Assembly: GCF_030758345.1 (NCBI RefSeq)
Contig: NZ_JAVAMO010000007.1
Coordinates: 137,127 to 201,126, forward strand
Reading direction: 5' to 3'
Source of the DNA: Ruegeria sp. 2205SS24-7
Lineage (GTDB): Bacteria > Pseudomonadota > Alphaproteobacteria > Rhodobacterales > Rhodobacteraceae
DNA: 64,000 bases
The notes beneath the pieces were generated by a model. It was not told where the DNA came from. It saw only the letters and a program-made list of their open reading frames with translations, and made no database searches. Made by a program: the position numbers and the translations under genes. Shown here piece after piece: positions 12,014 to 60,252 of the stretch. Position 1 is the first letter of the stretch. Each line of letters starts with the position of its first letter.

Positions 12014-15000
12014 ATGACCGATTCCGTTCAGCTCCAGAACAAGCTTCTGGAGTGCGATCTTCGTCAGCTATTGCAGCAGGCCGACCCGGATCGCGGTGTA
12101 CATTACGGAATGCAGGGCGATGCCTATCAGTCTTACGCCCAGCTTGCAGAGTCAGCGGAGCAGATCGCGCTCGGTCTGCTGGCCGAAGGCGTCACAGAAG
12201 GCGATCAGGTCGTCGTGATGATCGGTCCTCCCCAGCGATTTCTGGAATCGTTTTGGGGCTGCGTTCTGGCGGGGGCACAACCGGTTCCGCTGCAGCCAGG
12301 CGCCACAGACGAGGCCGCGCTCAAGGTCCTGCATGTCGCGCAGGTGCTGGTCGCCCCCTGGTTGATATCTGAAACCGGACTGGCCGGGCCGTTTGACAAG
12401 GTTGCGCGGTATCATGGACTTGATGAGGTCCTGTTGTCTCTGCGGGCGAAACAGATGAGCTATCAGGCCCTTGTAGACAGCCCGGCGGACGCCATCCTTC
12501 GCATCAAGCTCAACGCCGTCGGTCTGGATGCCGACAGCACCGCCTTCATCCAGTTCTCGTCCGGTTCAACCGGAGAACCAAAAGGGGTCGTGTTGACTCA
12601 TCGCCGTGTGGTGGCGCATCTGGCGGATCTCGGCGCCAGTTGCGAAGCAACGCGGGACGATGTTTTTCTGAGCTGGTTTCCCCTCACCCATGATATGGGC
12701 ATGGTGCTGATGCACCTTCTGCCACTCGCTTTGGGTGCAAACCAGGTCCAGATCGAAACCAAGTCCTTTGTGCAGCGGCCCCGACGCTGGTTGACGCGCG
12801 CATCGGAATTGAAGGCGACGGTGCTCTGCACCAACAATTTCGGTCTCAAGCACTTTCTGAAGCTAACCGGTGGCAAAGCACCGTTGACAGATGATCTTTC
12901 GCAGGTGCGGCTGATGTTTAACGCCGCCGAACCAATCTCGGCAGAGCTTTGGGAAACGTTCATGGATTTGATCGCCGGCACACATCTGCCGCGCGCAGCG
13001 ATGTATCCCGGTTACGGCCTTGCCGAAGCCACTCTGGCTGTGACCGTCCCAGTGCCCGGTGATGGCCTTCGGACGTTCAGCGCGAGCCGGGCGGCGCTTG
13101 GTCCCGGCGACACCCTGCTGCCACCCAGCAGTCCGCAGGACGCCGTACAACTTGTCGATGTTGGCCGCGCGGTCGAAAACACCTCCCTGCGTATCGCGGG
13201 CTGGGATGACGGGGATCTCGGCGAGAACCGTGTAGGTGAAATCCAGCTGCAAAGCCGCAGTGCGGCGCAGAGTTATCTCAACGCGCCGCGTGCCTCTCTG
13301 TACACTGCAGATGGATGGCTGAAGACGGGTGATCTCGGCGTGTTGCGGGATGGAAGGCTTTTCATCACCGGTCGGATCAAGGAAATGATCACCCTGGGCG
13401 GCGAAAATTTCTACCCGCATGATATCGAGCGCGTCGCTGAAACCGTGCCCGGTGTCGAACTCGGAAAGGTCGTAGCAACCTCGGTCTTCGATCTCGCATC
13501 GCAGGCCGAACAATTGCTGATCTTCCTCTACAGCCGCAGGATCGACGCGGAACTGGCCGGTCTGACCCGCGCCGTGCAGCAGGCGCTGGCCGCTTTGGGT
13601 GGATGGAAGGTCGATCGGGTGATCCCGATAGGTGCCGTGCCCAAAACCTCCAGCGGCAAGATCCGACGTGGCCATCTGGGGCAGCAATATCTAGCAGGTG
13701 CCTACGATGACTCGGTTGCGTCTTTGGAGCAGTTGCAGCGGGCGGCGGCACGCCGCCTCTCCGGGGGCCGGCGGACACGCACCCGGCAGGTGCTGCGCGT
13801 GCTTCAGGCAAGCGCCGCCGAGGTACTGGGCCGGTCGGATCTCGATATCCGAAAGCCATTGGTAGATCAGGGCTTCAACTCCGCCCGTGCGATGGCGCTG
13901 GTTGTGGATGCAGGGCAAACGCTGGGTCGCGACATCCCGGTTGCCTTTCTCTATGACTATCCGACGCTGTTATCGCTGGCCGAGGCCATAAGTCTGGCTA
14001 CCCCGGAACAAACCTCGACCCGAGCTGTAGCGGTTCAGCCCAAGATCACGATAGCTGGTCTGGGCTGCAGGTTTCCCGGCGGAATAGCGACACCTGAGGC
14101 GTTCAGGACTTTCCTGTCCGAAGGCCGTTCCGCCATTGGTCCTCTGCCCGACACCCGCGCGCCCAGGGGCCTGCCGCGCCACAAGCGCCCCGTCGCCGCA
14201 TTTCTCGACGAGATCGACGGCTTCGATCCTGAGCTATTCGGCATCTCCTGGGCCGAGGCGAAAGCAATGGACCCTCAGCAGCGCCTCCTGCTTGAGGTCT
14301 GCTGGGAAGCGCTGGAACGCGCAGGTCTGAGCGGCGCAAAGCGGCGGGCCCACGAAATCGGTGTCTTTGTCGGGATCGGGCCAGGCGAGTATGGGTTAGG
14401 TCACGAGACGACACCAAACCAGCATTCCTACACCGGCACCGCGCCTGCGATCGCAGCAGGCCGGATTGCTTATGCGCTGGGTCTGAGGGGACCGGCGATG
14501 GTTGTCGATACCGCCTGCTCTTCGGCGCTGGTTGCGGTTCATCTCGCGGTCCAGAGCCTCATTGCCGGGGAATGCGATACTGCGATTGCCGCTGGGGTAA
14601 ACCTAATCCTGGGTCCCGATGGCCATGCCAAGCTCGAAGCGGTTTCGGCGCTGTCCCCGACCGGCCAGTGCCGCGCATTCGATGACGAAGCGGATGGCTA
14701 TGTCCGGGGCGAAGGTTGCGGAGCGGTGGTGCTGCGCCTTGCGGATCAACTGTGCGATGGCGAGCCATCGGTGGCGATGATCACCGGCACCGCGCTCAAT
14801 CAGGACGGCCGCAGCGGAGGTCTCACGGTGCCCAGCGGCCCGGCCCAGGGCGCACTGATCAATCACGCGCTCGCCCGCGCCGGTCTGGCCCCGGCAGATA
14901 TCGCCTATATCGAAACGCACGGCACCGGGACACCTCTGGGCGACCCGATCGAAGCAAACGCGCTGACCCGTGTCTTTGGCCCTTCCCGGAGTGCTGGCAA

Positions 15001-18000
15001 ACCGTTGCTCATCGGCTCGGCGAAGACAAATCTCGGCCATCTGGAGGCGGCGGCGGGAATGGTGGGGCTGATCAAGGCGGCGCTTTGCGTCCAGTCCGGC
15101 ACATTGCCAGCAAGCCTGAATCACCGGGTTCCCAACCACCGGATCGATTGGACAAACAAGACATTGGAGGTGGTGACAAAACCCCGCTCATGGCCGGAGA
15201 CTGCTGCGCCGCGGCGCGCCGGTGTTTCGGCCTTCGGCCTGTCGGGCACCAACGCGCATGTGATCGTCGAACAGGCGGAGCGGCAAGCCATCACCGACGC
15301 AGAACCGGAAGAGGTAGGTCCCCTGCCCGTCCTGACCTTTTCCGCCGCCGACCCGCAGGCACTTCGGACCCGGGCCGGGCAACTGACCGACTATCTTGAG
15401 ACGCATCCCGATCTCGATCTGACCCAATTCTGTTCGGCACTGGCGCATAATCAGGCTGATCTGACACACCTGGCCGCTGGTGCAGTGTCGGACATAGCCG
15501 AGGCAGAGACGGCGCTGAGGGCCCTGGCCGAAGATCGCCCCGGCCCGATCAAGACCGGGCGCAAGCGCGGAGATGCATTGCACCAGATCGCCTTTGTGTT
15601 CACCGGCCAGGGCAGTCAATGGGCCGGGATGGGCGTTGATTTGCTGGAGCGCTCGGCCCTCTTCGCCAGCGAGATTGAGCGGATCGACGCACTACTTCTA
15701 CCGCTGACCGGATGGACCGTGCGCGATACGTTGACGAGCCCCGACGCCGCCAACCTTTTGCGCCGGACCGACCGCGCCCAGGCCGCGATTTTTGCGGTGC
15801 AGGCTGCCCTTGTCCGAATGCTCGAAGAACTGGGCCTGACGCCTGATGCCGTCATAGGTCACAGTGTCGGCGAGATTGCCGCTCACTATGCGTCGGGAGT
15901 GCTGTCGCTGGAGGAGTCCGTGCGGCTGGTCGCCCATCGCGGAAAGCTGATGCAGGCAGCGACAGGCCGTGGCCGGATGCTGGCTGTGCCCTTGGGAGAA
16001 GAGGCCATCGCCCCGCATCTCGCCGCCGTCGAGGGGCTGGACCTCGCCGCCGTCAACAGCCCGGATCAAGTGGTGCTGTCAGGCGATCAGCCCTGCATCG
16101 ATACAATGACCGCCCGCCTCAAGAACCGGAACATACCCGGCACCGATCTGGGTGTGGACTACGCGTTCCACGGGCGGCACGTGCAGTCCGAAGCCAAAGC
16201 ACTTGCAGAACAGTTGGGAACACTCTCTCCACTGCCCCCTCTCGCCTCGCTCTATTCCACCGTGACCGGCACCTTGCATCGATCCGAAGACGTGAATGCT
16301 GCATACTGGGCGCAGAACATCGGCGGCACCGTTCGGTTTGCGGAGGCGATGCAGGCCCTTCTCGCTGATGGATGCACTGATATCGTGGAAATCGGACCGC
16401 ATCCCGCGTTGTCATCCGCGATCACGGCCTGCATTGACGCAGCGGGCGGCGGGGCATCTTCCTTTGCCAGTGTTCCGACCTTGCGGCGCAATATGTCAGG
16501 TGCGCGCGCGGTGGCCGATACGCTTGCCTCACTGACCTGCCGTGGCCTCGCACCGAACTGGACACGGCTTTCTGACGAACCCACCGTCCTGACCGATCTG
16601 CCGACATATCCCTGGCAGCACAAGCGGTTCTGGCTTGACGGGTATGATCCGTGGGCCGCTCTGACGGATGGATCCGCGATGGATCAGGGCGCGCTCTACA
16701 CAACCGCTATCCGTCCTCTGACGATGCCGCTGGCTGAGAAGAAGCTGCCACCTCTGACACTCACCCATGGTGAAGGTGACGAACAGGCCGCCGTGCTGGC
16801 CTGTGCGCTTGCAGAACTTGTGGCGACCGAACGCAATTGCCGCATCGTTGCCTTGACAGGTCCGGCTGATGGCGCGCTGGAGGGTGACGGCTGGTTCGTT
16901 CACCTGACCGGGACCGTCTCGCCAGACCGCACATCGCAGGCATTGGCAGATCTCGCCACTGCGATCCAGGCGAGTCTGCCGCACCCTGGCTCACGGCTCT
17001 GGTGTGTGACGTTTGACCCTATGCCGGACAAAGCAAGCCCGGACGCGCTTGAAGCGTTTTCCCGGGTGGCAGCCCGCGAGCATCCCGAACTCAACATCGT
17101 GCGCGCGCGTCTGGCGGGGCAAGCGGATCTGGCCGGGCTGGCCGCTTTGCTGCGCAGTGACATGAGCGATTTCGACGCCGATGAACTGCGGCTTGAAGGG
17201 CCCGGGTTCTTCACCGAAAGGATTGCCCCGGTCGAAGAGGCGAAACCGGCACGCACATGGATGCTGCGGGGTGACGCGAGCTATCTGATCTCCGGTGGTA
17301 CGGGCGGCGTCGGGCTGGCCCTTGCCGAACAGATGCTGGATGCGGGCGCGGGGCAGGTGGTGCTGACCGGGCGCGCGGCACCGGGTGAAGCCGTCCGCAC
17401 CGCGATGCAGCGCCTGAACGCAGAGCAGCGACGATTGGAGGCCGTGGCGGTCGATGCCAGTGATCGCGCCGGGATGAGTGATTTGATCCGACAGCTCAGG
17501 GATGGTGCACTTCCCTTACGCGGCGTGGTCCACGCCGCAGCTGTGCTGCGCGATGGGACAATCCACAGCATGACCTCCGATCTGATCGCCGAGGTCGCAG
17601 CTCCCAAAGTCGCTGGGGGATGGGTTCTACATGATCTGACCCGCGACATCCCGCTCGACTACTTCATCTGCCTGTCTTCGATCGCCACGCTGATCGGCTC
17701 GCCGGGGCAAGGTGCTTATGCCGCGGCGAATGGCGGCCTCGATGCGCTGGCCCGCTTCAGAGCGGCGCAGGAACTGCCGTCGCTGAGCCTGCAGCTTGGT
17801 CCGGTCGCAGATCTGGGAATGATGGCAGAAGGCGAGGCGACGCGGCGCGATCCTGCCGCGCTCGGCCTCGGCACCTTGCAGCCGGACCTGCTGCTTGGTG
17901 GCGTGGAGCAGGCGTGGGAAACCGGTCTTCCGGTCGTTGCACTGGCCGAGTTTGATCCCGCAAAGTGGACGGAATATCTGCCAGATCCCGGCAACCGGGC

Positions 18001-18478
18001 AAGACTGTCCGAACTCGTTGCCACCCAGACTGCGACAGGCGACGTGCGGCCTGCCCCGCCGCAGCAAGCCTCTGCGGGGACAGGCCGGACACAGTTGAAA
18101 CGCATCGCCGCCCTGCCAGCAGTTGAACGGCCACAAGCGCTGATGGCTGAGATCGCCGCCATCATCGAAGCAGTGGATCAGACACCGGCAGATCTGCTCG
18201 ACCCCGACGCCAGCGTGCAGGATCTGGGGATCAGTTCGCTGACCCTTGTGGAATTGCGCAAGGCAATCGAGGCGCGCTTTGCCTGTCCCGTTCCGGTCAC
18301 CAGCTTCTTCGAGTTCCCCACGATCCGCAGCTTCGCCGGACATCTTGTCGAGATGCTGAACTTTGGGGACGAAGCAGCCGAAAACCAGCCAGAAGCGTCC
18401 AAACCGACCATGAAGGCGGGCGAAACGCACCTCACCGCGCGCGACGCGCTGCGCAGCAAACTGGAGAAGTATCGATGA
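12014..18478 (+). CDS. Loading/extension PKS with domain order FAAL (fatty acyl-AMP ligase) - ACP - KS - AT - KR - ACP.
   Basis: FAAL motifs: FIQFSSGSTGEPKGVVLTHRRV and YPGYGLAEATLAV. ACP1: LVDQGFNSARAMAL. KS: IAGLGCRFPGG, DTACSSALVAVHLA, HGTGTPLGDPIE, GHLEAAAG. AT: FVFTGQGSQWAGMG, GHSVGEIAAHYASG, YAFHG. KR Rossmann: YLISGGTGGVGLALAEQ. ACP2: LGISSLTLVELRK. No DH or ER motifs. The start is set at ATG 12014, which has a good RBS, rather than the longest-ORF start at 11945. The stop overlaps the gene 2 start (ATGA at 18475-18478). Confidence 0.9.
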   Translation: MTDSVQLQNKLLECDLRQLLQQADPDRGVHYGMQGDAYQSYAQLAESAEQIALGLLAEGVTEGDQVVVMIGPPQRFLESFWGCVLAGAQPVPLQPGATDEAALKVLHVAQVLVAPWLISETGLAGPFDKVARYHGLDEVLLSLRAKQMSYQALVDSPADAILRIKLNAVGLDADSTAFIQFSSGSTGEPKGVVLTHRRVVAHLADLGASCEATRDDVFLSWFPLTHDMGMVLMHLLPLALGANQVQIETKSFVQRPRRWLTRASELKATVLCTNNFGLKHFLKLTGGKAPLTDDLSQVRLMFNAAEPISAELWETFMDLIAGTHLPRAAMYPGYGLAEATLAVTVPVPGDGLRTFSASRAALGPGDTLLPPSSPQDAVQLVDVGRAVENTSLRIAGWDDGDLGENRVGEIQLQSRSAAQSYLNAPRASLYTADGWLKTGDLGVLRDGRLFITGRIKEMITLGGENFYPHDIERVAETVPGVELGKVVATSVFDLASQAEQLLIFLYSRRIDAELAGLTRAVQQALAALGGWKVDRVIPIGAVPKTSSGKIRRGHLGQQYLAGAYDDSVASLEQLQRAAARRLSGGRRTRTRQVLRVLQASAAEVLGRSDLDIRKPLVDQGFNSARAMALVVDAGQTLGRDIPVAFLYDYPTLLSLAEAISLATPEQTSTRAVAVQPKITIAGLGCRFPGGIATPEAFRTFLSEGRSAIGPLPDTRAPRGLPRHKRPVAAFLDEIDGFDPELFGISWAEAKAMDPQQRLLLEVCWEALERAGLSGAKRRAHEIGVFVGIGPGEYGLGHETTPNQHSYTGTAPAIAAGRIAYALGLRGPAMVVDTACSSALVAVHLAVQSLIAGECDTAIAAGVNLILGPDGHAKLEAVSALSPTGQCRAFDDEADGYVRGEGCGAVVLRLADQLCDGEPSVAMITGTALNQDGRSGGLTVPSGPAQGALINHALARAGLAPADIAYIETHGTGTPLGDPIEANALTRVFGPSRSAGKPLLIGSAKTNLGHLEAAAGMVGLIKAALCVQSGTLPASLNHRVPNHRIDWTNKTLEVVTKPRSWPETAAPRRAGVSAFGLSGTNAHVIVEQAERQAITDAEPEEVGPLPVLTFSAADPQALRTRAGQLTDYLETHPDLDLTQFCSALAHNQADLTHLAAGAVSDIAEAETALRALAEDRPGPIKTGRKRGDALHQIAFVFTGQGSQWAGMGVDLLERSALFASEIERIDALLLPLTGWTVRDTLTSPDAANLLRRTDRAQAAIFAVQAALVRMLEELGLTPDAVIGHSVGEIAAHYASGVLSLEESVRLVAHRGKLMQAATGRGRMLAVPLGEEAIAPHLAAVEGLDLAAVNSPDQVVLSGDQPCIDTMTARLKNRNIPGTDLGVDYAFHGRHVQSEAKALAEQLGTLSPLPPLASLYSTVTGTLHRSEDVNAAYWAQNIGGTVRFAEAMQALLADGCTDIVEIGPHPALSSAITACIDAAGGGASSFASVPTLRRNMSGARAVADTLASLTCRGLAPNWTRLSDEPTVLTDLPTYPWQHKRFWLDGYDPWAALTDGSAMDQGALYTTAIRPLTMPLAEKKLPPLTLTHGEGDEQAAVLACALAELVATERNCRIVALTGPADGALEGDGWFVHLTGTVSPDRTSQALADLATAIQASLPHPGSRLWCVTFDPMPDKASPDALEAFSRVAAREHPELNIVRARLAGQADLAGLAALLRSDMSDFDADELRLEGPGFFTERIAPVEEAKPARTWMLRGDASYLISGGTGGVGLALAEQMLDAGAGQVVLTGRAAPGEAVRTAMQRLNAEQRRLEAVAVDASDRAGMSDLIRQLRDGALPLRGVVHAAAVLRDGTIHSMTSDLIAEVAAPKVAGGWVLHDLTRDIPLDYFICLSSIATLIGSPGQGAYAAANGGLDALARFRAAQELPSLSLQLGPVADLGMMAEGEATRRDPAALGLGTLQPDLLLGGVEQAWETGLPVVALAEFDPAKWTEYLPDPGNRARLSELVATQTATGDVRPAPPQQASAGTGRTQLKRIAALPAVERPQALMAEIAAIIEAVDQTPADLLDPDASVQDLGISSLTLVELRKAIEARFACPVPVTSFFEFPTIRSFAGHLVEMLNFGDEAAENQPEASKPTMKAGETHLTARDALRSKLEKYR

Positions 18479-21400
18479 GCGCCCCACCCACGCCATCATA
18501 TGACGACCGCGACCTTGAAGAGGCCATCAAGGTGATCACGCTTCTCGAGGAACGGCTCGAAGAGGCGCAATCGCGTGGGGATGAACCTATCGCAATCATC
18601 GGTATGGGGTGCCGGTTCCCCGGCGGTGCAAACAATCCCGATGCTTTCTGGGACATTCTCAATCAGGGCTTTGATACGTCCTGCAACATACCACCGGATC
18701 GTTGGAACATCGCGGGTCCGCATGAAGCGTTTTTTGCAACCATACGCGGCCATTTTTTGGACGCCCGCCCGGACGGGTTCGACGCGAGCCTCTTTGGTCT
18801 GGCACCTGCGGAACTTGCCGCGATGGACCCGCAACAGAGGCTGTTGCTGGAGGTTGCATGGGAGGCTTTCGAGGATGCCGGTCTGTCGATTGACGCCCTA
18901 GCCGGGTCCAGAACCGCCGTTTTTGTGGGCATCGAGAAATCGGACTATGAGCGCGCCAGCCTGTTTTCCGACGATCTGAACCAGATCACACCGCATACGG
19001 CAACGGGCGTCGCCCAGTCGAACGCGGCGGGGCGGATCGCCTACAACTTTGATCTGCGGGGACCGGTCGGGGTTGTGGACGCGGCTTGTGCCTCGTCACT
19101 GCTGGCTCTTGATCAGGCGTGTCAGAAGCTGTCTCAGGGCTCCGCCGATCTGGCGCTTGCCGGCGGCGTCAGCCTCATGCTTGGCCCCGAGACATTTGCC
19201 GCGCTTTCCAAGCTCGGCGCGCTGGCGCCGGATGGGCGCTGCAAGACCTTCGATGCCGAAGCCAACGGTTATGGCCGAGGCGAGGGATGCGGCGTTCTGG
19301 TGCTCAAGCGGCTTTCGGATGCGCAACGGGATAGTGACCGCATACAGGCCGTTATCCATGGCGTTGCCGTTGGGCATGGTGGCCGGGGTAACGGGCTGAC
19401 CGCCCCGAATGTCAGATCGCAGGCGGATGTGATACGGGCTGCACTCGCGAGCGCGAAAAAGACCCCGTGCGAGGTTGACTATCTGGAGGCGCACGGGACG
19501 GGCACTCAACTGGGTGACCCTATTGAAATTGCCGCGATCACCGAAGTATTCGGCCCGGCTCGGCCTGCGGATCGGCCTCTCTTGGTCGGATCGGCCAAAT
19601 CGAATATCGGCCATCTGGAAGCTGCCGCCGGAATGGCGGGCCTTGTCAAACTGGCCCTTGCCTATCGCCATGGGGAGTTGCCGCCAAACTGCAATATCAA
19701 TACCCCAAACACACTGATCGACTGGGAGACCGCACCGGTTGAACTCGTGACCCGGTCTCGGGACTGGAAACCCTGCAGCAACGAGAGCGGGGCAAGCGCG
19801 CCCAGACTGGCGGGCATCAGTTCCTTCGGTTTTAGCGGCACGGTGGCCCATGCCATCATCGGCCCACCCCCGAAGGCGGCAGCTCAGCCGAAACCGTCGA
19901 CCGAAAGACCGGTGCAAATTCTCGCCCTGTCGGGCCAACGGACCGAAGCGCTTGCCGCGGTGGCCGGGCGCTTTTCAGAAGCGTTGGGCCTGCCCGGCAG
20001 CGACCTGCCAACTGTCTGCGCGAATGCCAACGTAACGCGCAAGCATCACGCCCTGAGGGCGGCGCTGATCAGCGATACCTCGCAGGACATGAAAACCTTA
20101 CTGAAAGATCCTCTGACACCGCAGGCCGGACGTGTGATCTTGGGGCGCGCAAACCCCAACGAACCGGCACGCGCCGCCTTCGTCTTCTCCGGGCAGGGCG
20201 GTCTGCGAAGCGGCGTCGGGCGCGATCTCTATGGCACGGTCCCGGCCTTCACGGACATGATCGACGCCTGCGGCAAGACGCTTGACCCTCTGCTTGGGCG
20301 GCACCTGCATGAGTTGCTTTTTGACGAGAATACCGAGCAGACCGCTTTCGACGATCCGCAAGTCGCGCAGCCCGCTCTCTTTGCGTTGCAGGTGGCCCTG
20401 GTGGCGATGTGGCGCAACTGGGGCGTGGTGCCGTCAGTGGTTTTCGGCCACAGCTTCGGGCATTTCGCCGCCGCTCATACCGCCGGGGTGCTGTCGCTCG
20501 GCGCCGCGCTGGACCTTGTGATCGCGCGAGGGCAATTGGCGCAAAGCAATGCAGTGGAAGGACGCATGGCGGCCTGTTTCACCTCCGCCGCCGAGGTCGA
20601 AGCGACCGCGCGCGCGACAGGCGTCGAAGCAATCATTGCTGCCTACAACGCGCCCGAAAATTCCACCGTCTCCGCCACGCCCGACGCGATGGAACAGCTG
20701 ACATCCGCGTTGATCGCGCGGGGCGTCACGGTCAAGCCTCTGCCCATCCGCCGGGCCTTTCACAGCCATCACATGCAACCGATGGCCGAAAGGTTCGAAA
20801 AGCGTGTCGCGGCAGCGCAGCTTCAAGCACCCAAGATCCCGCTGATCCTTGACCTGACCGGCCGATTAGTCACTGGCGATGAATTGACCGACCCGTCAGT
20901 CTGGACGCTGCAACTGCTGGAACCGGTTCAATGCATGAAAGCGCTTGAGACGTTGCGCGCGCGCGGATGCACGGCGGCGCTGGAGATCGGCGCATCCGCG
21001 GTCATGTCCAGCCTGGGAGAGGAGAACGCGGACCCCGATGACAAGATGGCGTGGCTGCCCAGCCTGCGCCGCTCGACCAGCGGATGGCAACAGGCGCTTG
21101 CGACTCTTGGCGAGTTGCATGTGCGCGGCGTGCCGGTCGATTGGCGGCGCTTCCATTCCGAGGATGCGGCGCCGAGGATCAAGCTACCCACCTACCCGTT
21201 TCAGCGTAAGGCTTACCGCCTGCCGATGAAGCTGCCGGATCAGATGCGCCCGGATGAGCCGTCAGATCGACAATGGACTCCGGTGCGGGACTGGCTATTG
21301 AAGGGCGCCCCCCCGGCAAAGCAAGTCGCCGACGATCTCGCGGCGGCGGGACGCTTCGGGCGGCGGCATCTGGCCGCTTTCGCCCATGCGATCGGCCTGT

Positions 21401-24400
21401 TCGATCTGGCGCAGCTCGGCAGGACAGAGACCGAGTTGCTCGCGATGCTCGACATTCTGCCCGCCCATGAGCGCCTGATGCGGTGGTATGTTGATCTGCT
21501 GCTCGAAGATGGCTGGCTCGGCGCGACGGGTGACATGCTCCGCTCAACGCAACGGGCGCACAACACGGATTTCGCCGCATGGGCGGCCGAAACCCGAGCG
21601 GAAGAGAAGCGGCTGCAAGAACATCACCCCGATATGAGTGCCGCTTTCGAACTGCTGCGCCGGTGTTTCGAGGCGCTGCCCGACATTCTGAGCGGTGCGC
21701 GCGACCCGATGGAAGTGCTGATGCCGGGCGGTTCCGCCGAATTGCTTGGGGGGATTTACGGTCAGGGGCGGTTATCCCAATCCTTCAACTCGGTCATGGC
21801 GATGGCGGTTCCGGCTGCCGCTGAGGGCATTTCTGCACCTCGAATTTTGGAAATCGGCGGCGGCACAGGCGGTGTCACTCAAGGCATTCTCGACAGTTTC
21901 GCCCGGGAAAAGCGGGATGTTTCTTATACCTTCACGGACATAAGCGACGGCTTTGTCCGGCCCGCACGGGCACGTTGGGCCAACACATACCCAGCAATGG
22001 AATTTGCGACACTCGATGCCACGCTGGCGCCCTCAGCCCAGGGGTTCGAGGCCGCAAGCCAGGATGCGGTTGTAGCGTCAAACGTGTTGCACGCCACCCG
22101 GGACATGCAGGAAACGCTGCGCAACGCGGCAGAGCTCTTACGGCCCGGTGGAAAGCTCATCATCAACGAAGTCACACGGCTGCATGACGTGGTCGGCATG
22201 ATCTTCGGCCTGACACCGGGCTGGTGGCAATACGAAGATGATGCGCTGCGCATCTCGCATTCGCCGGTATTGAGCGTATCGGGTTGGCGAAAGGCACTGG
22301 ACGCCGCGGGCTTTACCGTCGAAGAGGTCCTTACCCTATCCGGAGACGATCCGGATCGCGCCCTTCAATCCGTGATCGTCGCGCGCCTTGTCTCAATGCC
22401 CGCACGCCTCGCCACAACGGCCCCCGCCGTGGCGGTCTCATCCGCACCAATCGCTGCCCCGGAACCCGCTTCGGACCATATTCCGGCCATGTGTGATCTG
22501 GTGAAAGAGATCAGCGGTATCGAACTGGCCCAACATGACCTCGATAGCGACCTCTTCGCGCTGGGTCTCGATTCCCTGCTGCTCATGCAATTGCGCAACG
22601 CGATCCAGAAACGGTTTGGCGCGAACCTGAAGATGAGCAGTTTCCACGATGAGATGTCCTCCGTCAGACGGATCGCGGATTATCTTTCTGAGCTGGCGCC
22701 ACCGCCCGAACCACCTGCAGCGCCGAGCCCCGCTCCGACATCAGCACCAGCCGTCACGCAATCCCCGCCCATACCTCAAGCTCATGAGAAACATACAGCG
22801 CCTGCGCAGGTGAAGTCCGCGCTGGAGGAGATCGTACAGCAGCAGTTGAAACTGATGTCGGATCAGATCGCCCTTTTGTCGGGACAGCAGAGCGGATTGC
22901 CAGCACCGCAGCCAGACGCCACCGCGACGCCGGTACCGGAAACGCCGACAGTACCACCGCCCAAACCTGCAACTCTCCCCGCCGCGCACCAGCAGGCACC
23001 GACTGCTGATCTGACAAAACGGCAACAGGAATTCCTGCAAGACCTGATCAGGCGCTATAACGCGCATACCGCCGCGTCCAAGGCTTATGCGTCCAAGGCC
23101 CGTCCGCAGCTCGCCGACTGGATCGCGACCATCGGATTCAGCCCCGAACTCAAGGAGTTAATCTATCCGATTGTTACGGCGAAATCAGAAGGCAGCCGCC
23201 TCTGGGATATCGACGGCAATGCCTATATCGATCTGGCCTGCGGGTTTGGCGTTGGGTTGCTGGGACATCAGCCCGCCTTCATCACCGACGCCATCCGGGC
23301 ACAGCTTGACGAGGGCATGGAACTCGCGACGCAAAGCGATCTGGCGGCTGAAACCGCGTCGCTGCTTTGCGAGTTGACGGGGTGCGAGCGCGTCGCCTTC
23401 AGCAATACCGGCACCGAAGCCGTGATGACTGCCTTTCGGCTGGCGCGCGCGGTCACAGGCAAGCCCAAGATTGCCATTTTCAAAGGGTCCTTCCACGGTT
23501 CCTACGATGGTGCGATGGCCTTTGGCAGCCCGCTTGGCACCATGTCTGCCTCGCTCGGCGTTCTCCAGAACCAGATTGAAGACGTGATCGTGCTCGACTA
23601 CGGCACGGATGCCGCACTTGATGCAATCGCTGCCGAGGCTGACCAGCTGGCCGGCGTGCTGGTCGAACCGGTGCAGAGTAGAAACCCCGATCTGCAACCG
23701 CGAGACTTCCTGCACAGATTGCGACAGATCACCGAAGACCGAGATATCGCGCTTGTTTTTGATGAGCTGATCACCGGTTTCAGATGTCATCCCGGCGGCG
23801 CACAGGCGCATTTCGGGGTCACCGCCGATATCGTGACCTACGGCAAGGTCCTGGGTGGCGGGCTGCCGATCAGTGCCATCGCGGGCAAGGCGCGTTTCAT
23901 CGATCCGATGGACGGCGGCGCCTGGCGCTATGGCGACAGCAGCGGGCCGACGGCGACGCAGATCTTCTTTGGCGGGACGTTCTGCCGTCATCCCTTGGCG
24001 ATGGCGAGCGCACATGCCACGCTCACCCATCTGAAGGAGCAGGGCCCCGCGCTACAGGAGCGCCTGAGCGCCCGGACCCGGGCAATGACGGACCGTTTGA
24101 ACGCGATGTTCGCCCGTCTTGGCATACCTTTCCGTATTGCCGGCTTCGCATCGCAATTCCAGGTGCGCCAGGTGACCCCGCAGGGAGAACTTTACCAGAC
24201 GCTCCCGCTCTCGCTCTTCTTCTTCTCACTGATGTTGCGCGGCATTTATTCGTGGGAGCGCCGAACCTGCTTCCTGTCCACCGCCCATTCGGATGCCGAT
24301 ATCAGTACCATCGAAGACGCTATGGAGGCGGCCGCCAAGGACCTTCTGCTTGGGGGCTTTTTCGGCGGTGACGACGGCGGTGGAAAGACCATTGAACTGG

Positions 24401-41124: not shown

Positions 41125-41130
41125 GACCAA

Positions 41131-46008: not shown

Positions 46009-46057
46009 TGACGGGAACCGGCTTGACCAGAACATTATCGACACCGGGGCAGTTTCG

Positions 46058-55000: not shown

Positions 55001-57415
55001 GCAATGGTCCCTTCACGTATTGTCACGCTGAAGGCCTGGCCGCTCACCAGCAGCGGCAAAATCGATCAGGCCGCCCTGCCCGCCCCGGCCAGCCCGCGTT
55101 TGACTGACGCGGACGCCCCCAAGCCCGGGCTGGAGCAGCAGATCGCCTCGGTCTGGATGCAGGTATTGGGCCGCGACGCGATAGGCCGTCAGGATGACCT
55201 GTTTGATCTGGGGGCCGATTCCCTGAAAATCGTCCTGATCGTGAGCGCACTGAAAGCCCAGGGAATAGCCGCCAGCGTCACCGACCTCTACCTTTGTCGA
55301 AGCGTCGAATTGCTTGTCCGGCAGGTGGAGTCTGCAAAGCCCGACTTGCCGGTGGCAGGCAAACGCCAAAGCGATGTGGTACCGGTGACGGCGATCCAGA
55401 ACTGGTTTTTTGCGCGTTTCGACGGCGACCTGAACCATTTCAATCAGGCGGTCACCCTGCGGCTTGACGGGTCCGAGCCCAGCGAGCACATCCGCGCAAA
55501 TCTGGTTGAACTCGCCCGGAAACACCCCGCGTTGTGCACCCGTTTCCGCAAGATCGAAGGCGCATGGCATCAAGACCTGAGCGGCCACGCGGACGCGGCC
55601 ATTGGCACCGTCGAACATCATCGTACAGACAGCGATGCAGCGGTGCAGGATATCGCGGAAGCCCTTCAACGCGCGTTGACCATCGACGAGGGGCGGCTCA
55701 TGTCCGCCGCTCGGATCAGCCACGAGACCAAAGGCGAGTTTCTGGTGCTGATCGTCCACCATCTCGCCGTGGATGGCTATAGCTGGCGGCTGATCCTCAA
55801 GGATCTGAACGACCTGATGGCGGGAAAACCGCTCACACTGGAAACCGGGTGGTCGATCTCTGATCTGGCGAATGCCGAGACCGAACTGCGGGGACTGCCT
55901 GCGCTGGAACGCGAAAGCGTGGAATGGCGGCATCTGCTCGACGCGGTGGCGCGGCCGCCATGGGCTCGGAACCGACCCTGTTCGAACCGGTCCATGTGCA
56001 ATGCAAGCGCGAAACTGCCTGCCGAGGCGACTTCGCAGTTGCTGGCGTCAGTCGGCCCGGGGATGGAGAGCCTGCTGCTCAGCGCCTTCGCCTCCGCGCT
56101 GCGCCGCGCCCTCGCCCTTGGCGACCTCCTGTTCTTGCTCGAAGGGCATGGCCGCGCGCCGTTGCTGCGCGCGGCGGACCTGTCCGAGACCGTTGGCTGG
56201 TGCACGGCGATCTACCCAGTCGCCCTGCCTGCGAGCACCGCGGGTGAACCAGACAAAGTTGCCGATGCGATTGCCGCCGTGCCCTCCGGCGGCGCGGGTT
56301 TCCTGCGCCTTCTTGCGGGTGACGCGGAATTGTCGCAGCGTGTCAAAGGCGCAATCGTCTTCAACTATCTCGGTGAGTTCGGCACGCAGGCGGCAGGACA
56401 ACCAGGACCCGTCATTGCCGGGGCCCACGGCACCATGATCGACCCGGCGGCATCGGCGCTTGCTCCCATCGACGGACTTGCCCTTGTGCAGAACGGCCAG
56501 TTGTCCATCACACTGCGCGCCGACCCGGATATCCTCCCGCCCGACCTGCTGAACGCCGTGGTCCGCGACATGCTGGAAGAGGCGCGATCACAGGCACCGC
56601 GACACCAGGCGAAACCGGCACCGCAAATGGCGCGGCCTTATGATGTTCCGCCAGTGGAAACGCCTACAACTCTGAATACCGCTACGGGTTCCGATCTCTT
56701 TGCCATGCCCCCGCTGCTAGGATACGGGGCCGCGTTTTCCCGGCTTGCAAATGCCCTTGAGCATACCCGCCTGCACGCGTTCGACTTCATCGAAACCGAA
56801 GACCGCATGGCGCGATATGTCGACGCGATCACCTTTGTCACAGGCGACAAACCGATCCGATTGCTCGGTCTTTCCGGCGGCGCGCTGCTTGCTTTCGAGG
56901 TGACAAAGGCGCTGGAGGCCAGAGGATACCGGGTTGCGGATCTGATCCTTCTGGACACCCCGGCCAATCTTGCGCCTGTCCAACGCTCGACCGATGAGAT
57001 CGAAGCAAAAATCCAGGCAGATCTGTCTTATCTTCAGAACCAGATGGCGGAGGAAGGCGGCACCTATCAGGCGGCAGTCAATGATACCGAAGCCCAGACC
57101 ACTCTGATTGCCAAGATGCGGCGGTTCATCGAATATCTCGACCCGCTGGTAACCTCTGGAACCGCAAAGGCGAACATTCACCAGATCCGGTCGGAACAGC
57201 ATTGGGAAGCCGATGCGGCCTGGTCGCGCTGGCGCACGCTGACCTGCGCGCGCTTCCAGACTTACCAGGGCTCGGGCCAGCACGCGGATATGCTCGACCA
57301 GCGCAATGGACCGGCAAACGCCCGCATCATCGAACATATTCTCCAGCAAGCGGACAGGAGGCATCTGAAGGCCGCCGACGCCGCGGAAGAGCGTCCTAAG
57401 GAAAGACTCGGCTAA
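46058..57415 (+). CDS. Terminal NRPS (about 3785 aa from ATG 46058). Domain order: C-A-PCP, C-A-PCP, C-A-PCP-E-TE.
   Basis: C domains: WTHHHVLLDGWC, LHHIIGDAIS, LHHIVGDGWS. A domains with YTSGSTGQPKG, FTSGTTGQPKG and FTSGSTGRPKG, each with YRTGD or YCTGD, a GRxDxQVK(L/V/I)RGxRIE A8 motif and GKID(R/Q). PCPs: GGHSL, GGHSL, GADSL. E domain: VHHLAVDGYSW and LLEGHGRA. TE: GLSGG nucleophile elbow. The start is set at ATG 46058 (MIRKEQIADIYPLSPMQEAM, a typical C-domain N-terminus). The longest-ORF start at 45980 would overlap gene 3 by 29 nt and has no RBS spacing. Confidence 0.88.
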   Translation: MIRKEQIADIYPLSPMQEAMVVAGLRDPDSTAYVQQLRITLNRDLNQDTFKAAWQELVDRHTILRTAFILRNTPRFLQAVLKQVEPDIATQDLTQLTEEEQAARIEQICLSERIRGFDLTSGPPSRIRLIRRGPQSHVMIWTHHHVLLDGWCLGLIAEEFFQLYAALRDGHAPGLGPARPYSSFVKWVQDRPVEQSLPYWKDYLAGYEPMSRLPTGDTPHPAAGMIDEECTLDHRIFEAVNALAARLRVTKGALLHAAWGVFLAKYSDTDDALFTSVIANRPPSLPGAEQMIGLLINAVPVRVRLGAEDSFAQLAQQVQADMLARAEHEHVPLATIQGVAPQAAQVFDTLLIVQNYPLGGVASDGLSGGLQAIPDTLTEETHAPLTLNVSLADGIHLHLSARPEHHDAAMASQMIRHFAGLLERLIDRADDPLITQTPLGHTEALSLSAPPDTQPIPASMAELLAGQVTKTPDATALTAGAKTLSYAELSHRADRLAAHLSASLGLRRGDKVGLMLPRGSWLVTAMLALIRMGVAYVPLGPRDPAARTGFVLIDAGVTALITAADVALPDGFDGKIIRLGEDTSLPDAASHGATPAPDDLIYIAYTSGSTGQPKGVEIAHRNVAAFTETLPATLGLRAGQRILGLTTHTFDISFLELISSLALGLEVVLADDETAADPIAICDLIKTQKIDVLQTTPSRLRTLVEVGGWKALEDLNTILVGGEALPSDLFDGLRTLPETRSINVYGPTETTIWSTAQDLSDGLLCIGRPFPGEAAFVSGRNGQVMPVGAVGELCITGAGLGRGYHQRPDLTAERFADHPFVPAAKCYRTGDLARRRTDGRFEVLGRLDDQVKLRGHRIELGEIESTLRGLHGIEAAVVLPERGASGETKALTAYVVCKTGTAPDGILGQLASLLPAHMIPGALVPLDRLPLMPSGKIDRSALRQFEATAPVTRDVTDLPRDETEQGIARIIAEVLDRPVFGRSEDFFVAGGHSLLTARVIGRIRRDFGCSISIREYFAAPTVAGLAKHVRARGGAQGTRILPAPEAPDHPLTPAQRQLYVLDRIRPGRADYIVSTAFLLEGPLDLSALQRALDGLVLRHEALRTAFVMRGDTPRQMVQPVRPYALERRDVSDVPTAEGEIAAFAIRSFDLADGYLSRALLLRIDTEAHVMGFALHHIIGDAISLDVIARDLSRLYNSERAGRQATLKPLALQQRDIAHWIAERAESPDMDDAASYWADIMKGPVPRLDLPLDRPRPATLDDAGGIVSHELDPELALALQHCAQRAGISLFALVTAITALTLTRWSAQDEVILGTAVAGRDLTELEPQVGLYVNMVPLRLRVAEHDGIDDFLSAANAVLIGALEHQHYPYDQLIDRLQLDHSPDRTPLVEAVVGLQRAAPSRAEFDGLSFTPLTRSGSAVRFDLTFDLVERGERCFSLDLSYRKSVFSGSRAERLAESWRHVAEQITSMPGHALSDLAITPDIAAEGAQVPKTRALTEMFADQVARTPSAIALVEGDRHLTYQALNDQITAFAQALIAAHGVAPGDLVGLLLPRSADAVIALLAIQYAGAAYVPLDPKLPDTRLEQITKQAGIRLVVTDAADANRARGALSVDVAEVGERASAKVSLPKISTDDLAYVLFTSGTTGQPKGVMIEHRSVANLILWMNRTIHGGPEAQPGHHAALAALSFDVSVHEIYAALLFGHTLHIVTDEVKTSPRHLSQQIERDGITSLSLTPSLLSVLLDADRIAPNWPVRTLLMGAEELPLPMIEAVRHAARQPDLRIFNLYGPSETCVDATWHEFGTDLSQDTAAPIGVPIDGAEVLICDPQMRALPPGAMGQICISGPGLARAYLNAPDLTNAAFVPHPMRPGTRLYCTGDFGYRREDGVLMFAGRRDHQVKVRGHRIELLEIERQLATLPDISSVVVTAPEGPAGRDLVAYVAAEALDIPWLRQKLAEALPAYMVPEVYVRLDRMPLNASGKIDRARLPAASGPVETGTPPRPGREAQIAAIWSNILGTRNVKREDEFFRSGGHSLAAIRLLTALERDLGVAVPLPDFFRRPTVSGLAELSLQAGTPDTIPPAPIAAHYPLSPAQRRLWVLNEIDPTAYLLNVAVRIDGPLCIDLLARACAEVGKRHFALGTRLVTPDGIPRQIPAACPITLIKHVARGWSESRLLTALEQQARKPFDLETGPPLRLQIWDHGDDRALFLLSLHHIVGDGWSLNLILSEICTLYDAFSRDEPSPLLPLTLQAHDIAVHEDKQMARLQQAHEGPLAAARAYWHEKLDGGPTRLDLPADRPRPRVKTSAGHTIPFRFHAAAAESLCRRAETLNGGLFPLLTALVKVLLHRYTGEQDIWLGTAIAARQGQDRAAQVGFHVDTVVLRDQVSAAMPFDTFLGNVAETIAQATAHAAYPIDALIDELDVERDTSRAGLFDAMIVYNVAEAQEIGLRDVTLTPLPLADDIARFDLTVHITRDGDALRGAVEYNTDLFDADRMDRLIAHLQSLAASITTASEAAIGALELIPQSEQAQLDRFSAGPSAPLPTGTIPEAVWAQAGQTPQSLAIAGPDPLSYAELKSRAQALGRWLVETGQLAPGEAVGVCMERGTDLIVALLAVMEAGGVYLPLEPDHPKARIDRTLAEAGCRLVLSDAAGSVVSDLAPPSATRGDLTLGVRAANALQTHPDCAYLIFTSGSTGRPKGVRVSHGAFLNMVAAQNAAFGLALGDRVLFFASPAFDASLAEIFTTLTSGATLVPATAERVRDGANFASWMTDERISVATLPPAYLAALRQPDLPHLRVLITAGEAPLHKDVAHYAPRLSYFNAYGPTENAVCSTIQRVTSADGPIPIGRPIANTKVLILDDTQSPVPIGVPGEICLAGASLALGYLDPAQTAARFVKGPDGMRLYRTGDLGCWTKDGTVLYAGRDDAQVKIRGQRIEPGEVAAALETHPDVQSALALVREDMLCAYVVGHGKERELRRHASTILPSAMVPSRIVTLKAWPLTSSGKIDQAALPAPASPRLTDADAPKPGLEQQIASVWMQVLGRDAIGRQDDLFDLGADSLKIVLIVSALKAQGIAASVTDLYLCRSVELLVRQVESAKPDLPVAGKRQSDVVPVTAIQNWFFARFDGDLNHFNQAVTLRLDGSEPSEHIRANLVELARKHPALCTRFRKIEGAWHQDLSGHADAAIGTVEHHRTDSDAAVQDIAEALQRALTIDEGRLMSAARISHETKGEFLVLIVHHLAVDGYSWRLILKDLNDLMAGKPLTLETGWSISDLANAETELRGLPALERESVEWRHLLDAVARPPWARNRPCSNRSMCNASAKLPAEATSQLLASVGPGMESLLLSAFASALRRALALGDLLFLLEGHGRAPLLRAADLSETVGWCTAIYPVALPASTAGEPDKVADAIAAVPSGGAGFLRLLAGDAELSQRVKGAIVFNYLGEFGTQAAGQPGPVIAGAHGTMIDPAASALAPIDGLALVQNGQLSITLRADPDILPPDLLNAVVRDMLEEARSQAPRHQAKPAPQMARPYDVPPVETPTTLNTATGSDLFAMPPLLGYGAAFSRLANALEHTRLHAFDFIETEDRMARYVDAITFVTGDKPIRLLGLSGGALLAFEVTKALEARGYRVADLILLDTPANLAPVQRSTDEIEAKIQADLSYLQNQMAEEGGTYQAAVNDTEAQTTLIAKMRRFIEYLDPLVTSGTAKANIHQIRSEQHWEADAAWSRWRTLTCARFQTYQGSGQHADMLDQRNGPANARIIEHILQQADRRHLKAADAAEERPKERLG
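56640..57412 (+). other. C-terminal type I thioesterase (release/cyclisation) domain of gene 4.
   Basis: LLGLSGGALLAFEV (GxSxG) ~225 aa after the E domain, within an alpha/beta-hydrolase-length C-terminal region. Confidence 0.75.
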
Positions 57416-58561: not shown

Positions 58562-58630
58562 CGCATTTCCCGGCATTCGACCTGAACCTCGCAATAACAC
58601 TCCGTGACAAGAACCAAGCGGGGCATGGCC

Positions 58631-60247: not shown

Positions 60248-60252
60248 CGCGA

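Follow-up and report, generated by a model that had tools for sequence, protein, structure and literature searches.

The window examined here, a 64,000-nucleotide stretch of the Ruegeria sp. 2205SS24-7 genome (RefSeq assembly GCF_030758345.1, contig NZ_JAVAMO010000007.1, positions 137,127 to 201,126), contains a hybrid assembly line that combines an FAAL (fatty acyl-AMP ligase), polyketide synthase (PKS) modules and nonribosomal peptide synthetase (NRPS) modules, and is predicted to make a lipopeptide built on a β-amino fatty acid. The line occupies positions 12014-57415 of the plus strand (about 45 kb) as four large co-directional open reading frames (ORFs), referred to below as genes 1 to 4. 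Domains were assigned by Pfam, and their positions were mapped by local phmmer with exemplar domains (Table 1). The complete string reads FAAL-ACP-KS-AT-KR-ACP / KS-AT-cMT-ACP-AMT-(10 C, 10 PCP, 7 A, 2 E)-TE, where ACP is acyl carrier protein; KS, ketosynthase; AT, acyltransferase; KR, ketoreductase; cMT, C-methyltransferase; AMT, aminotransferase; C, condensation; PCP, peptidyl carrier protein; A, adenylation; E, epimerization; and TE, thioesterase.

Pfam E-values across the four genes range from 1e-9 down to 0. Gene 1 matches the AMP-binding, KS, AT and KR families once each and PP-binding twice; gene 2 matches KS, AT, Methyltransf_12/23, PP-binding and Aminotran_3, followed by Condensation/AMP-binding/PP-binding repeats; gene 3 consists of an A domain, a methyltransferase (MT), a PCP and a condensation-family domain; and gene 4 has four C-family domains, three A, three PCP and a Thioesterase. 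All of the 10 C, 2 E, 10 PCP, 7 A and 1 TE domains were placed by phmmer; one E domain falls in gene 3 and the other near the C-terminus of gene 4. The NRPS part of gene 2 is arranged as C1-[relic]-PCP1, C2-[relic]-PCP2, C3-A3-PCP3, C4-A4-PCP4, C5-PCP5, C6-A6-PCP6 and C7, so that module 7 is split between genes 2 and 3.

The frames of 2154, 7549, 1625 and about 3800 codons are free of stops. An RBS-like (ribosome-binding site) GGGAGG sits 8-9 nucleotides 5' of the ATG at 12014, which makes this ATG a reasonable start for gene 1. Gene 4 has two candidate starts, an ATG at 45980, which would give a 29-nucleotide overlap with gene 3, and an ATG at 46058, which lies 50 nucleotides past the end of gene 3, in agreement with the 53-nucleotide gap in Roseibium marinum (see below). 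The phosphopantetheine-accepting serine is present in all three ACPs and all ten PCPs. The HHxxxD motif is kept in both E domains, which also carry EGHGR, and in nine of the ten C domains. C8 is an outlier among the C domains (55 bits to C3), which fits its place after an E domain, where a D-donor C domain is expected. Promoter/terminator, Rfam and MbtH scans of the window gave no matches.

Table 1. Features of the window, with the assembly line listed first and the flanking genes after it; two starts are given where the start is ambiguous
Feature	Positions	Strand	Basis and motifs
Gene 1 (2154 aa from ATG 12014): FAAL-ACP-KS-AT-KR-ACP	11945/12014-18478	+	Pfam
FAAL loading domain	12086-13714	+	PDB neighbours, A5-A6 insertion
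Loading ACP	13799-13990	+	Pfam PP-binding 4.7e-11, alignment; Ser in GFNSA
KS1-AT1	14042-16525	+	Pfam, motifs (DTACSS; GHSVG, YAFH); AT of malonyl type
KR	17276-17812	+	Pfam KR 1.8e-54; GGTGGVG, catalytic Tyr, LRD (B-type)
ACP1	18149-18346	+	Pfam, alignment; Ser in GISSL
Gene 2 (7549 aa): KS-AT-cMT-ACP-AMT, NRPS modules 1-6, C of module 7	18475-41124	+	Pfam, phmmer
KS2-AT2	18583-21132	+	Pfam, motifs (DAACAS Cys, HGTGT, NIGH; GHSFG, RAFH)
cMT	21820-22326	+	Pfam Methyltransf_12 1.7e-18, Methyltransf_23 1.9e-14; LEIGGGTGG
ACP2	22489-22686	+	Pfam, alignment; GLDSL
AMT, class III aminotransferase dependent on pyridoxal phosphate (PLP)	23137-24414	+	Pfam Aminotran_3 5.4e-53; Lys in TYGKVLGGG
C1, condensation-family	24430-25794	+	Motif alignment; AHPLICDGWS
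Module 1 A relic (~305 aa)	25795-26709	+	hhalign; no Pfam family
PCP1	26710-26904	+	Pfam, phmmer, alignment; GGTSL
Module 2: C2, ~90-aa A6-A8 relic, PCP2	26905-28704	+	phmmer, alignment; HHIAFDG, GGNSL
Module 3: C3-A3-PCP3	28738-31794	+	phmmer, A3 code
Module 4: C4-A4-PCP4	31858-34959	+	phmmer, A4 code
Module 5: C5, 40-aa linker, PCP5, no A domain	35002-36594	+	phmmer, alignment; HHIIVDG, GGHSL
Module 6: C6-A6-PCP6	36628-39714	+	phmmer, A6 code
C7, C domain of split module 7, C-terminus of gene 2	39754-41121	+	phmmer, motif alignment
Gene 3 (1625 aa): half-C, A7 with embedded MT, PCP7, E7	41131-46008	+	Pfam, phmmer, hmmsearch
Half C domain (270 aa; C-terminal lobe alone, without the His motif)	41131-41940	+	hmmsearch
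A7, Tyr-type, split between A8 and A9 by MT	41941-44400	+	Pfam, code
PRMT-like SAM methyltransferase in A7	43231-44220	+	PDB PRMT matches; Pfam Methyltransf_25, PRMT5; VLEIGPGAE
PCP7 and E7	44422-46005	+	Pfam, phmmer; HHIAVDWVSW, EGHGRE; E motif kept in all orthologues
Gene 4 (~3800 codons): C8-A8-PCP8, C9-A9-PCP9, C10-A10-PCP10-E10-TE	45980/46058-57415	+	Pfam, phmmer
E10 and terminal TE	55382-57337	+	Pfam, phmmer, motif check; HHLAVDGYSW, EGHGRA; GLSGG
Sfp/HetI-type 4'-phosphopantetheinyl transferase (PPTase)	10536-11300	-	Pfam ACPS, AASDHPPT_N; NCBIfam HetI-like below cut-off
Type II thioesterase (TEII)	9681-10532	-	Pfam Thioesterase 6.7e-33; 100% identical to WP_306199480.1 (Ruegeria sp. 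2205SS24-7 / R. discodermiae)
DUF697 protein	9006-9491	-	Pfam; kept between TEII and RND pump in relatives (L086 10918-11514)
Resistance-nodulation-division (RND) membrane fusion protein (MFP)	7495-8682	-	Pfam
RND AcrB-type pump	4383-7490	-	Pfam
RND outer-membrane factor	3061-4386	-	Pfam
cupin_8/JmjC-type hydroxylase	1916-2902	-	E 4e-45
Reverse transcriptase (RT)-like ORF	27-1310	+	RVT_1 4.5e-8, PADLOC Drt9 9.3e-17, NCBIfam group II intron RT 4.6e-16
TAXI-family TRAP solute-binding protein	57464-58600	-	TIGR02122, 134 bits (cut-off 84)
Two fused TMD-NBD ABC exporters (transmembrane and nucleotide-binding domains)	58631-61908	-	TIGR01194 cyclic peptide export

Predicted lipid-building front end

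The FAAL-specific insertion is located between motifs A5 and A6. In the loading domain of gene 1, 74 residues lead from YGLAE (A5) to GEIQL (A6) as against about 52 in the NRPS A domains of the same cluster, which corresponds to a FAAL-type insertion of about 20 residues. Its matches in PDB include McyG (4R0M, the second-best), the FAALs 3KXW and 3PBK, and FadD32/23/28. The NCBIfam FAAL models stay below their cut-off for this domain (NF006624, 286 bits; cut-off 600), and the best-scoring NCBIfam model is a generic long-chain ligase (306 bits; cut-off 572). The domain is a predicted FAAL on account of its insertion, its neighbours in PDB and the ACP fused to it, and would adenylate a fatty acid and load it onto that ACP.

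Both KSs carry the Cys/His/His set, and both ATs have GHSxG and xAFH motifs, the latter indicating malonyl-CoA specificity by established rules; since the ATs are of the malonyl type, the 2-methyl group of the product would come from the cMT. No dehydratase (DH) or enoylreductase (ER) was detected by Pfam in gene 1, where the interval between AT and KR matches no Pfam family, and oxygenase, DH and ER families were not found by Pfam in genes 1 and 2. With this set of domains, PKS module 1 would add malonate and reduce the keto group to a hydroxyl, and PKS module 2 would add another malonate, methylate C2 and, by means of the AMT, turn the 3-keto group into an amine. The expected outcome is a 3-amino-5-hydroxy-2-methyl acyl thioester.

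The AMT is located between the PKS ACP and the first NRPS C domain and retains the catalytic Lys. It matches the AMT structure of MycA from the mycosubtilin system (6KFM) at E 8.8e-116, and the Lys in TYGKVLGGG aligns with that of MycA. It is also the best conserved domain in comparison with R. marinum (82-85% identity).

Most of what the preliminary description of this locus, made from the bare sequence and its ORF translations, had proposed for the assembly line agrees with these results. This includes the domain order, borne out by Pfam and phmmer; activation of a fatty acid as the acyl-AMP by a FAAL, supported by the insertion and the FAAL/McyG matches; a first extension with ketoreduction only, since KR is intact and neither DH nor ER was seen by Pfam; a second extension with C-methylation and transamination, the cMT being recognised by Pfam and the AMT judged PLP-competent by alignment of its Lys to 6KFM; ten carrier modules with E domains at positions 7 and 10 and a terminal TE; and the flanking Sfp-type PPTase, TEII and exporters (Pfam; TIGR01194 above its cut-off). 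The same description had considered that the AMT might turn out to be a degenerate non-PLP domain; with the Lys in place this is not so.

Modules without adenylation domains

Seven A domains are available for ten PCPs, and Pfam, phmmer, hmmsearch and hhalign detect no functional A domain in modules 1, 2 and 5. The relic in module 1 is collinear with positions 113-493 of the A-domain profile (hhalign E 8.9e-5, probability 60%) and has lost motifs A3, A4, A5, A7, A8 and A10. The shorter relic in module 2 is found at E 0.0015 by hmmsearch and at E 0.004 by hhalign. As expected of a non-linear NRPS, modules 2 and 5 keep both HHxxxDG and GGxS, and module 1 keeps GGTSL, though with HPxxxDG in its C domain.

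No canonical C-A-PCP module follows the AMT. The C1 motif reads HPxxxDG, with the second (catalytic) His of HHxxxDG replaced by Pro, and the A domain next to it is the motif-less relic. The AHPLICDGWS segment is identical in three lineages, i.e., the window, R. marinum and an uncultured Roseibium, so the Pro variant is not a sequencing accident. In the Ralstonia and Burkholderia loci discussed below and in the majority of distant relatives, the AMT is followed by an HH motif and an intact A domain; the C domain in this place reads AHH(I/L)VCDGWS in Burkholderia and the majority of distant relatives and FHHVIIDG in Ralstonia. A protein search with the C1-relic-PCP1 segment gave only generic NRPS matches at no more than about 28% identity, and also missed the Roseibium orthologues. 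The nearest AMT relatives outside Roseibium, three loci from Desulfobacterales and Methylumidiphilus metagenome-assembled genomes (L003, L004, L032), show tandem C-family matches after the AMT; L003 and L004 have the order AMT-C-C-A, and L032 has AMT-C-A-PCP-C-A. In the region of their first C match where the motif is expected (unaligned), the sole His...Asp string is RHL(M/L)I(F/A)D rather than HHxxxDG.

The R. marinum cluster, of which about 43 kb was reconstructed by joining two loci (L001 and L081), is collinear with the window domain for domain, all relics included. Selective constraint was estimated as the ratio of nonsynonymous to synonymous substitution rates (dN/dS), for modules 1-4 from the pair formed by R. 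marinum and the uncultured Roseibium (dS 0.3-0.5). The C and PCP domains of the A-less modules (C1 0.18, PCP1 0.12, C2 0.16, PCP2 0.10) fall in the same range as the canonical ones (C3 0.21, C4 0.22, PCP3 0.085), and the module 1 relic (0.31) evolves like the interdomain linker (0.33). Module 5 was assessed with another pair, in which dS (0.9-1.3) is near saturation; it gave 0.21 for C5 and 0.11 for PCP5, compared with 0.20 for C6 and 0.10 for PCP4 and PCP6. Values across the cluster lie between 0.06 and 0.3. Decay of the A domains while their C and PCP partners hold is the pattern expected if loading has passed in trans and the modules elongate, and it argues against simple skipping. Because the C and PCP domains of modules 1, 2 and 5 are conserved like working ones, these modules are most likely still in use, and would be aminoacylated either by A domains that belong to other modules or by one whose gene lies elsewhere.

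We therefore read the locus as an intact, selectively maintained hybrid FAAL-PKS-NRPS line of the β-amino fatty acid lipopeptide class, with orphan modules loaded in trans, and would put the probability of this reading at roughly 0.6. It competes with a scheme that we find rather unlikely, in which modules 1, 2 and 5 are dead and bypassed, and the product is a lipoheptapeptide, β-amino acyl-Val-Gln-Gly-D-Tyr(Me)-Gly-X-D-Ar (X, one polar residue; Ar, aromatic). Bypassing would agree with the lack of a functional A domain in all three modules and of any trans-acting A domain within the window, with the loss of the catalytic His in C1, and with the low identity to R. marinum of C1 and the relics (45-53%, a range shared by the half C domain of gene 3, compared with 62-86% elsewhere). 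It does not sit well with dN/dS, which is the same in C1, C2, C5, PCP1, PCP2 and PCP5 as in working domains while the A relics drift at the linker rate, nor with the retention of Ser in PCP1, PCP2 and PCP5 and of HHxxxDG in C2 and C5. Moreover, the arrangement has survived about 30% amino acid divergence in at least four lineages, with AHPLICDGWS invariant in three of them.

The accumulated scars (A domains reduced to relics in two modules and deleted in one, a C domain cut to half and another with His changed to Pro) might also be taken to mean that the whole cluster is silent or decaying and makes nothing. The uninterrupted frames, the dN/dS values, the conserved specificity codes and the synteny of PPTase, TEII and pump with the cluster all speak for maintenance, and we regard such decay as very unlikely.

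A-less C-PCP modules recur in 8 of the 24 annotated AMT-containing loci (L009, L013, L014, L015, L016, L020, L021, L022), and A-domain sharing may be common in AMT-containing hybrid assembly lines. Unrelated bacteria host these modules, among them Aquabacterium, Bradyrhizobium, Mycobacteriaceae and Roseobacter.

The interrupted module 7 and the predicted peptide

Gene 3, which is 67-68% identical to its Roseibium orthologues, departs from the standard module layout in two ways. It begins with a half C domain that matches positions 186-441 of the cluster's own C profile (hmmsearch, E 4e-7) and is 51% identical to that of R. marinum; a possible role is in the docking of split modules. A homologous half C domain heads an A-PCP-E subunit in the Burkholderia locus (L085, 27376-~28100), and in both loci the preceding protein ends in a full C domain.

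The second departure is an S-adenosylmethionine (SAM)-dependent methyltransferase of about 330 residues, similar to protein arginine methyltransferases (PRMTs), that interrupts A7. The order of motifs is GRRDGQIK (A8), VLEIGPGAE, and LPDYMRP...SGK (A9/A10), and the SAM-binding motif is intact. PDB matches include PRMT6 (E 1.9e-14) and PRMT2 (over residues 14-298), and the domain is 83% identical to its R. marinum counterpart. Two orthologues of gene 3, P0004 (1279 aa) and P0007 (1272 aa), are without exactly this segment of about 346 residues, and have Phe-like codes (DAYLLAAICK and DAFTIAAVCK) instead of the Tyr code of A7. Among 102 scored A domains that host the methyltransferase, the code begins with DAST in 54 and with DAAT in 8. 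As the methyltransferase accompanies Tyr codes and the methyltransferase-free orthologues are Phe-like, O-methylation of Tyr is favoured, and the embedded domain is probably a Tyr O-methyltransferase. It was also considered as a novel element, which was rejected: 536 members of the family were counted at E<=1e-30 (e.g. P0376-P0522), nearly all of them inside megasynthases of 1-7 thousand residues, so it is a common one. Pfam recognises the domain weakly, and it could serve as an annotation rule for O-methyl-Tyr modules.

The specificity codes of the A domains were extracted against a sequence of GrsA; as a control, GrsA itself returns DAWTIAAICK. By comparison with published codes, we would assign DAYWLGGTFK of A3 to Val, DAQDLGVVDK of A4 to Gln, DILQLGVIWK, found in both A6 and A8, to Gly, DASTLAAVCK of A7 to Tyr, and DAATIAAVCK of A10 to an aromatic residue (Tyr/Phe). 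The code of A9, DVHSLGLVDK, was not assigned to a substrate and is taken as that of a polar residue. R. marinum has the same code in six of the seven A domains, at an overall identity of about 70%.

The peptide is proposed to grow from the acyl carbonyl, with the seven A domains supplying Val, Gln, Gly, D-Tyr (probably O-methylated), Gly, one polar residue and a D-aromatic residue. Loading of modules 1, 2 and 5 in trans would make this a non-linear NRPS with up to ten residues, and the working structure of the product would be 3-amino-5-hydroxy-2-methyl-acyl-(X1)-(X2)-Val-Gln-(X5)-Gly-D-Tyr(OMe)-Gly-X9-D-Tyr/Phe, with the TE as the releasing domain. By analogy with the iturins, release is most likely by macrolactamisation onto the β-amine, and the RND and ABC systems would export the product.

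Release could take another course, either closure of a macrolactone on the KR-derived 5-hydroxyl, with the β-amine left free or modified later, or hydrolysis to a linear lipopeptide. The hydroxyl made by KR offers a suitable nucleophile, and the TE sequence is silent on the choice. On the other side, both ABC exporters downstream of gene 4 belong to a cyclic-peptide export family (TIGR01194, 289.9 and 314.5 bits; cut-off 286.2), although the family name is nominal, and the characterised iturins and puwainaphycins close the ring through the β-amine, as is well established (PMC4219810); by this analogy, a different release seems unlikely.

Several points weigh against the favoured reading of a trans-loaded β-amino lipopeptide line. 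Neither a stand-alone A domain nor an MbtH gene was found within the window in the ORF list or by scan. Paralogous PCP, C and A domains are only 17-43% identical, with no sign of recent internal duplication, so that no pairing of an A domain with an orphan PCP can be inferred. Lacking the condensation His in C1, module 1 may not elongate at all, and the constraint on module 5 was estimated from the near-saturated pair. The codes depend on a single GrsA reference sequence, and that of A9 could not be assigned. PDB neighbours of the loading domain include the keto-acid-activating 6ULW and the phenylpropanoid loader McyG, so the starter may not be a fatty acid. Lactam, lactone and hydrolytic release fit the sequence alike. 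Finally, the cluster is an orphan.

Flanking genes, relatives and known systems

The PPTase-TEII-DUF697-MFP-AcrB order upstream of gene 1 is syntenic in relatives (L086, L087); this conserved block does not extend to the outer-membrane factor, the cupin_8 gene or the RT-like ORF. The cupin_8/JmjC gene was considered as a tailoring hydroxylase and set aside, not being syntenic with the cluster in L086. The RT-like ORF scores below curated cut-offs where such exist, and the Rfam scan of the whole window gave no group II intron RNA; this ORF could be a defence-associated RT or an intron remnant. The TRAP solute-binding gene, which separates gene 4 from the ABC exporters, probably has no part in the pathway.

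In a genome scan with the AMT, the nearest relatives were R. marinum DSM 17023 (82%) and the uncultured Roseibium (80%), and all others were at most about 50% identical. The cluster is also present in two further assemblies from other samples. The sole exact database match of a window protein was that of the TEII to WP_306199480.1, which points to Ruegeria sp. 2205SS24-7 / R. discodermiae as the probable source; exact look-ups of the PPTase, gene 3, the matched TEII and the R. marinum TEII returned no records. Close relatives from named genomes, at about 68% amino acid identity, are all Roseibium (Hyphomicrobiales, Stappiaceae), whereas the source, Ruegeria, belongs to Rhodobacterales; either the cluster would be shared across two orders, or the name or placement of the strain needs checking. 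The GC content of the megasynthase genes is 0.636 as against 0.578, and GC3 is equal in the cluster and the flanks. The rise looked like horizontal transfer but was rejected as evidence of it, since, GC3 being uniform, it is a composition effect. A search of a plasmid collection gave only weak RND-pump matches and no evidence of a plasmid location. No characterised lipopeptide from Roseibium, Labrenzia or Ruegeria was found in the searched literature. For Labrenzia marina DSM 17023 (now R. marinum), one NRPS-T1PKS (type I PKS) cluster is listed that has no assigned product, and for that of L. aggregata USBA 371 a similarity of only 4% to sporolide is reported (PMC7321072).

Among characterised systems, MycA/ItuA of mycosubtilin and iturin (Bacillus) share with the window an acyl-AMP ligase fused to an ACP, KS extension, a class III PLP-dependent AMT between ACP and the first C domain, a terminal TE and, presumably, a cyclic β-amino fatty acid lipopeptide as the product. 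The window differs in having two PKS modules instead of one, with cis ATs, KR and cMT; a first C domain with HPxxxDG and no working A domain; ten carrier modules rather than seven; and a Gram-negative marine alphaproteobacterial host. Owing to the extra PKS module, KR and cMT, the predicted acid is 3-amino-5-hydroxy-2-methyl, not plain 3-amino as in MycA/ItuA. The combination of cMT and AMT in one PKS module is shared with McyE of microcystin and NdaF of nodularin, where the order KS-AT-cMT-ACP-AMT-C gives the 2-methyl-3-amino acyl unit of Adda; the Adda starter is derived from phenylpropanoid and extended by several more PKS modules, and the peptide and the organisms are unrelated to those of the window.

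Two proteobacterial loci, which from organism and gene content we take to be a Ralstonia rmy-type (ralsolamycin/ralstonin) cluster (L084) and a Burkholderia occidiofungin-like cluster (L085), have the same FAAL-PKS-AMT-NRPS logic, with AMTs 50-53% identical to that of the window. The Ralstonia locus also adjoins a cyclic-peptide ABC exporter of the TIGR01194 family, and the Burkholderia locus has several KR-bearing PKS modules ahead of the AMT and a subunit that opens with a half C domain followed by A and E. Unlike the window, both have a canonical HH C domain and an intact A domain after the AMT and no cMT in the AMT module, and carry MbtH, MBL-fold (metallo-β-lactamase), TauD and other accessory genes. 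A-less modules are a feature of the thalassospiramide system, whose producers, Thalassospira and Tistrella, are marine alphaproteobacteria.

The puwainaphycin cluster of Cylindrospermum (PuwB-PuwH) shares the FAAL start, a tailoring PKS module (PuwB), a subsequent PKS+AMT+NRPS hybrid protein (PuwE, PKS+AMT+Ox+NRPS), Val as the first residue with its own A domain, and a roughly ten-module NRPS that ends in TE (PMC4219810). Its FAAL and ACP are stand-alone proteins, PuwB is fully reducing and contains the cMT, and PuwE has a monooxygenase for the 2-hydroxyl (PMC4219810); in the window, FAAL and ACP are fused, PKS module 1 has KR only, the AMT module contains the cMT, and an Ox domain is absent. 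Puw modules own their A domains, unlike modules 1, 2 and 5 here. A-less C-T modules (T corresponding to PCP) served by the A domain of another module are described in Ttm of thalassospiramide (10.1101/560987) and in CmnI of capreomycin (PMC12400406). Both are without FAAL, AMT or a β-amino fatty acid, and in the window A-domain sharing is suggested by selective constraint alone.

The preliminary description had gone further than the domain order. It had the β-amine initiate the peptide, amounts to a strictly collinear line, and held the architecture to be an undescribed-looking variant. In pathways of the iturin and puwainaphycin type, the first amino acid attacks the thioester carbonyl, and the β-amine is nucleophilic only at TE-mediated ring closure. 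C domains join an upstream thioester carbonyl to a downstream amine, which would leave the β-amine free until release, as in MycA-type systems; the puwainaphycin scheme is compatible with its acting only at ring closure (PMC4219810). Strict collinearity is impossible with seven A domains for ten PCPs. Nor is the split into FAAL/KR and cMT/AMT PKS modules without parallel, given PuwB/PuwE (PMC4219810), the Ralstonia rmy layout and the multi-KR PKS before the AMT in the Burkholderia locus, and A-less modules have precedents in thalassospiramide (10.1101/560987), capreomycin (PMC12400406) and the eight related loci. Although the domain order is as described there, that version as a whole is hardly credible. 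A characterised cluster with a close match, which would have made the locus a known one, was not found by genome scan and in the literature, with MIBiG outside the search. Beyond that description, the present analysis adds the His-to-Pro change in C1, the relics in the A-less modules, the half C domain of gene 3 and the methyltransferase inside A7. The logic of the pathway is thus already known, and what appears to be new is the way the lipid is tailored, the group to which the host belongs, the presence of three A-less modules under constraint and the C domain with Pro in place of His.

A more far-reaching proposal, which we hold to be possible but put forward only tentatively, is that C1-relic-PCP1 is a new kind of non-aminoacylating station for transfer or holding of the β-amino acyl chain, or else that all three orphan modules are fed by multitasking A domains. 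Either way, the product would be a decapeptide with repeated residues that collinearity could not predict, and the first β-amino fatty acid lipopeptide family from Roseobacteraceae/Stappiaceae, spread across two alphaproteobacterial orders.

Orphan hybrid clusters are very numerous, and each of the unusual features of this one has a precedent. If the product is isolated, it would extend the iturin/puwainaphycin/occidiofungin class of membrane-active β-amino lipopeptides to marine Rhodobacterales and Stappiaceae. The locus also amounts to a natural experiment in NRPS evolution, in which three A domains have decayed or been deleted while their C and PCP partners stay under normal constraint, and both A-domain sharing and the retention of an active-site segment by a C domain that has lost its catalytic His can be put to a direct test here.

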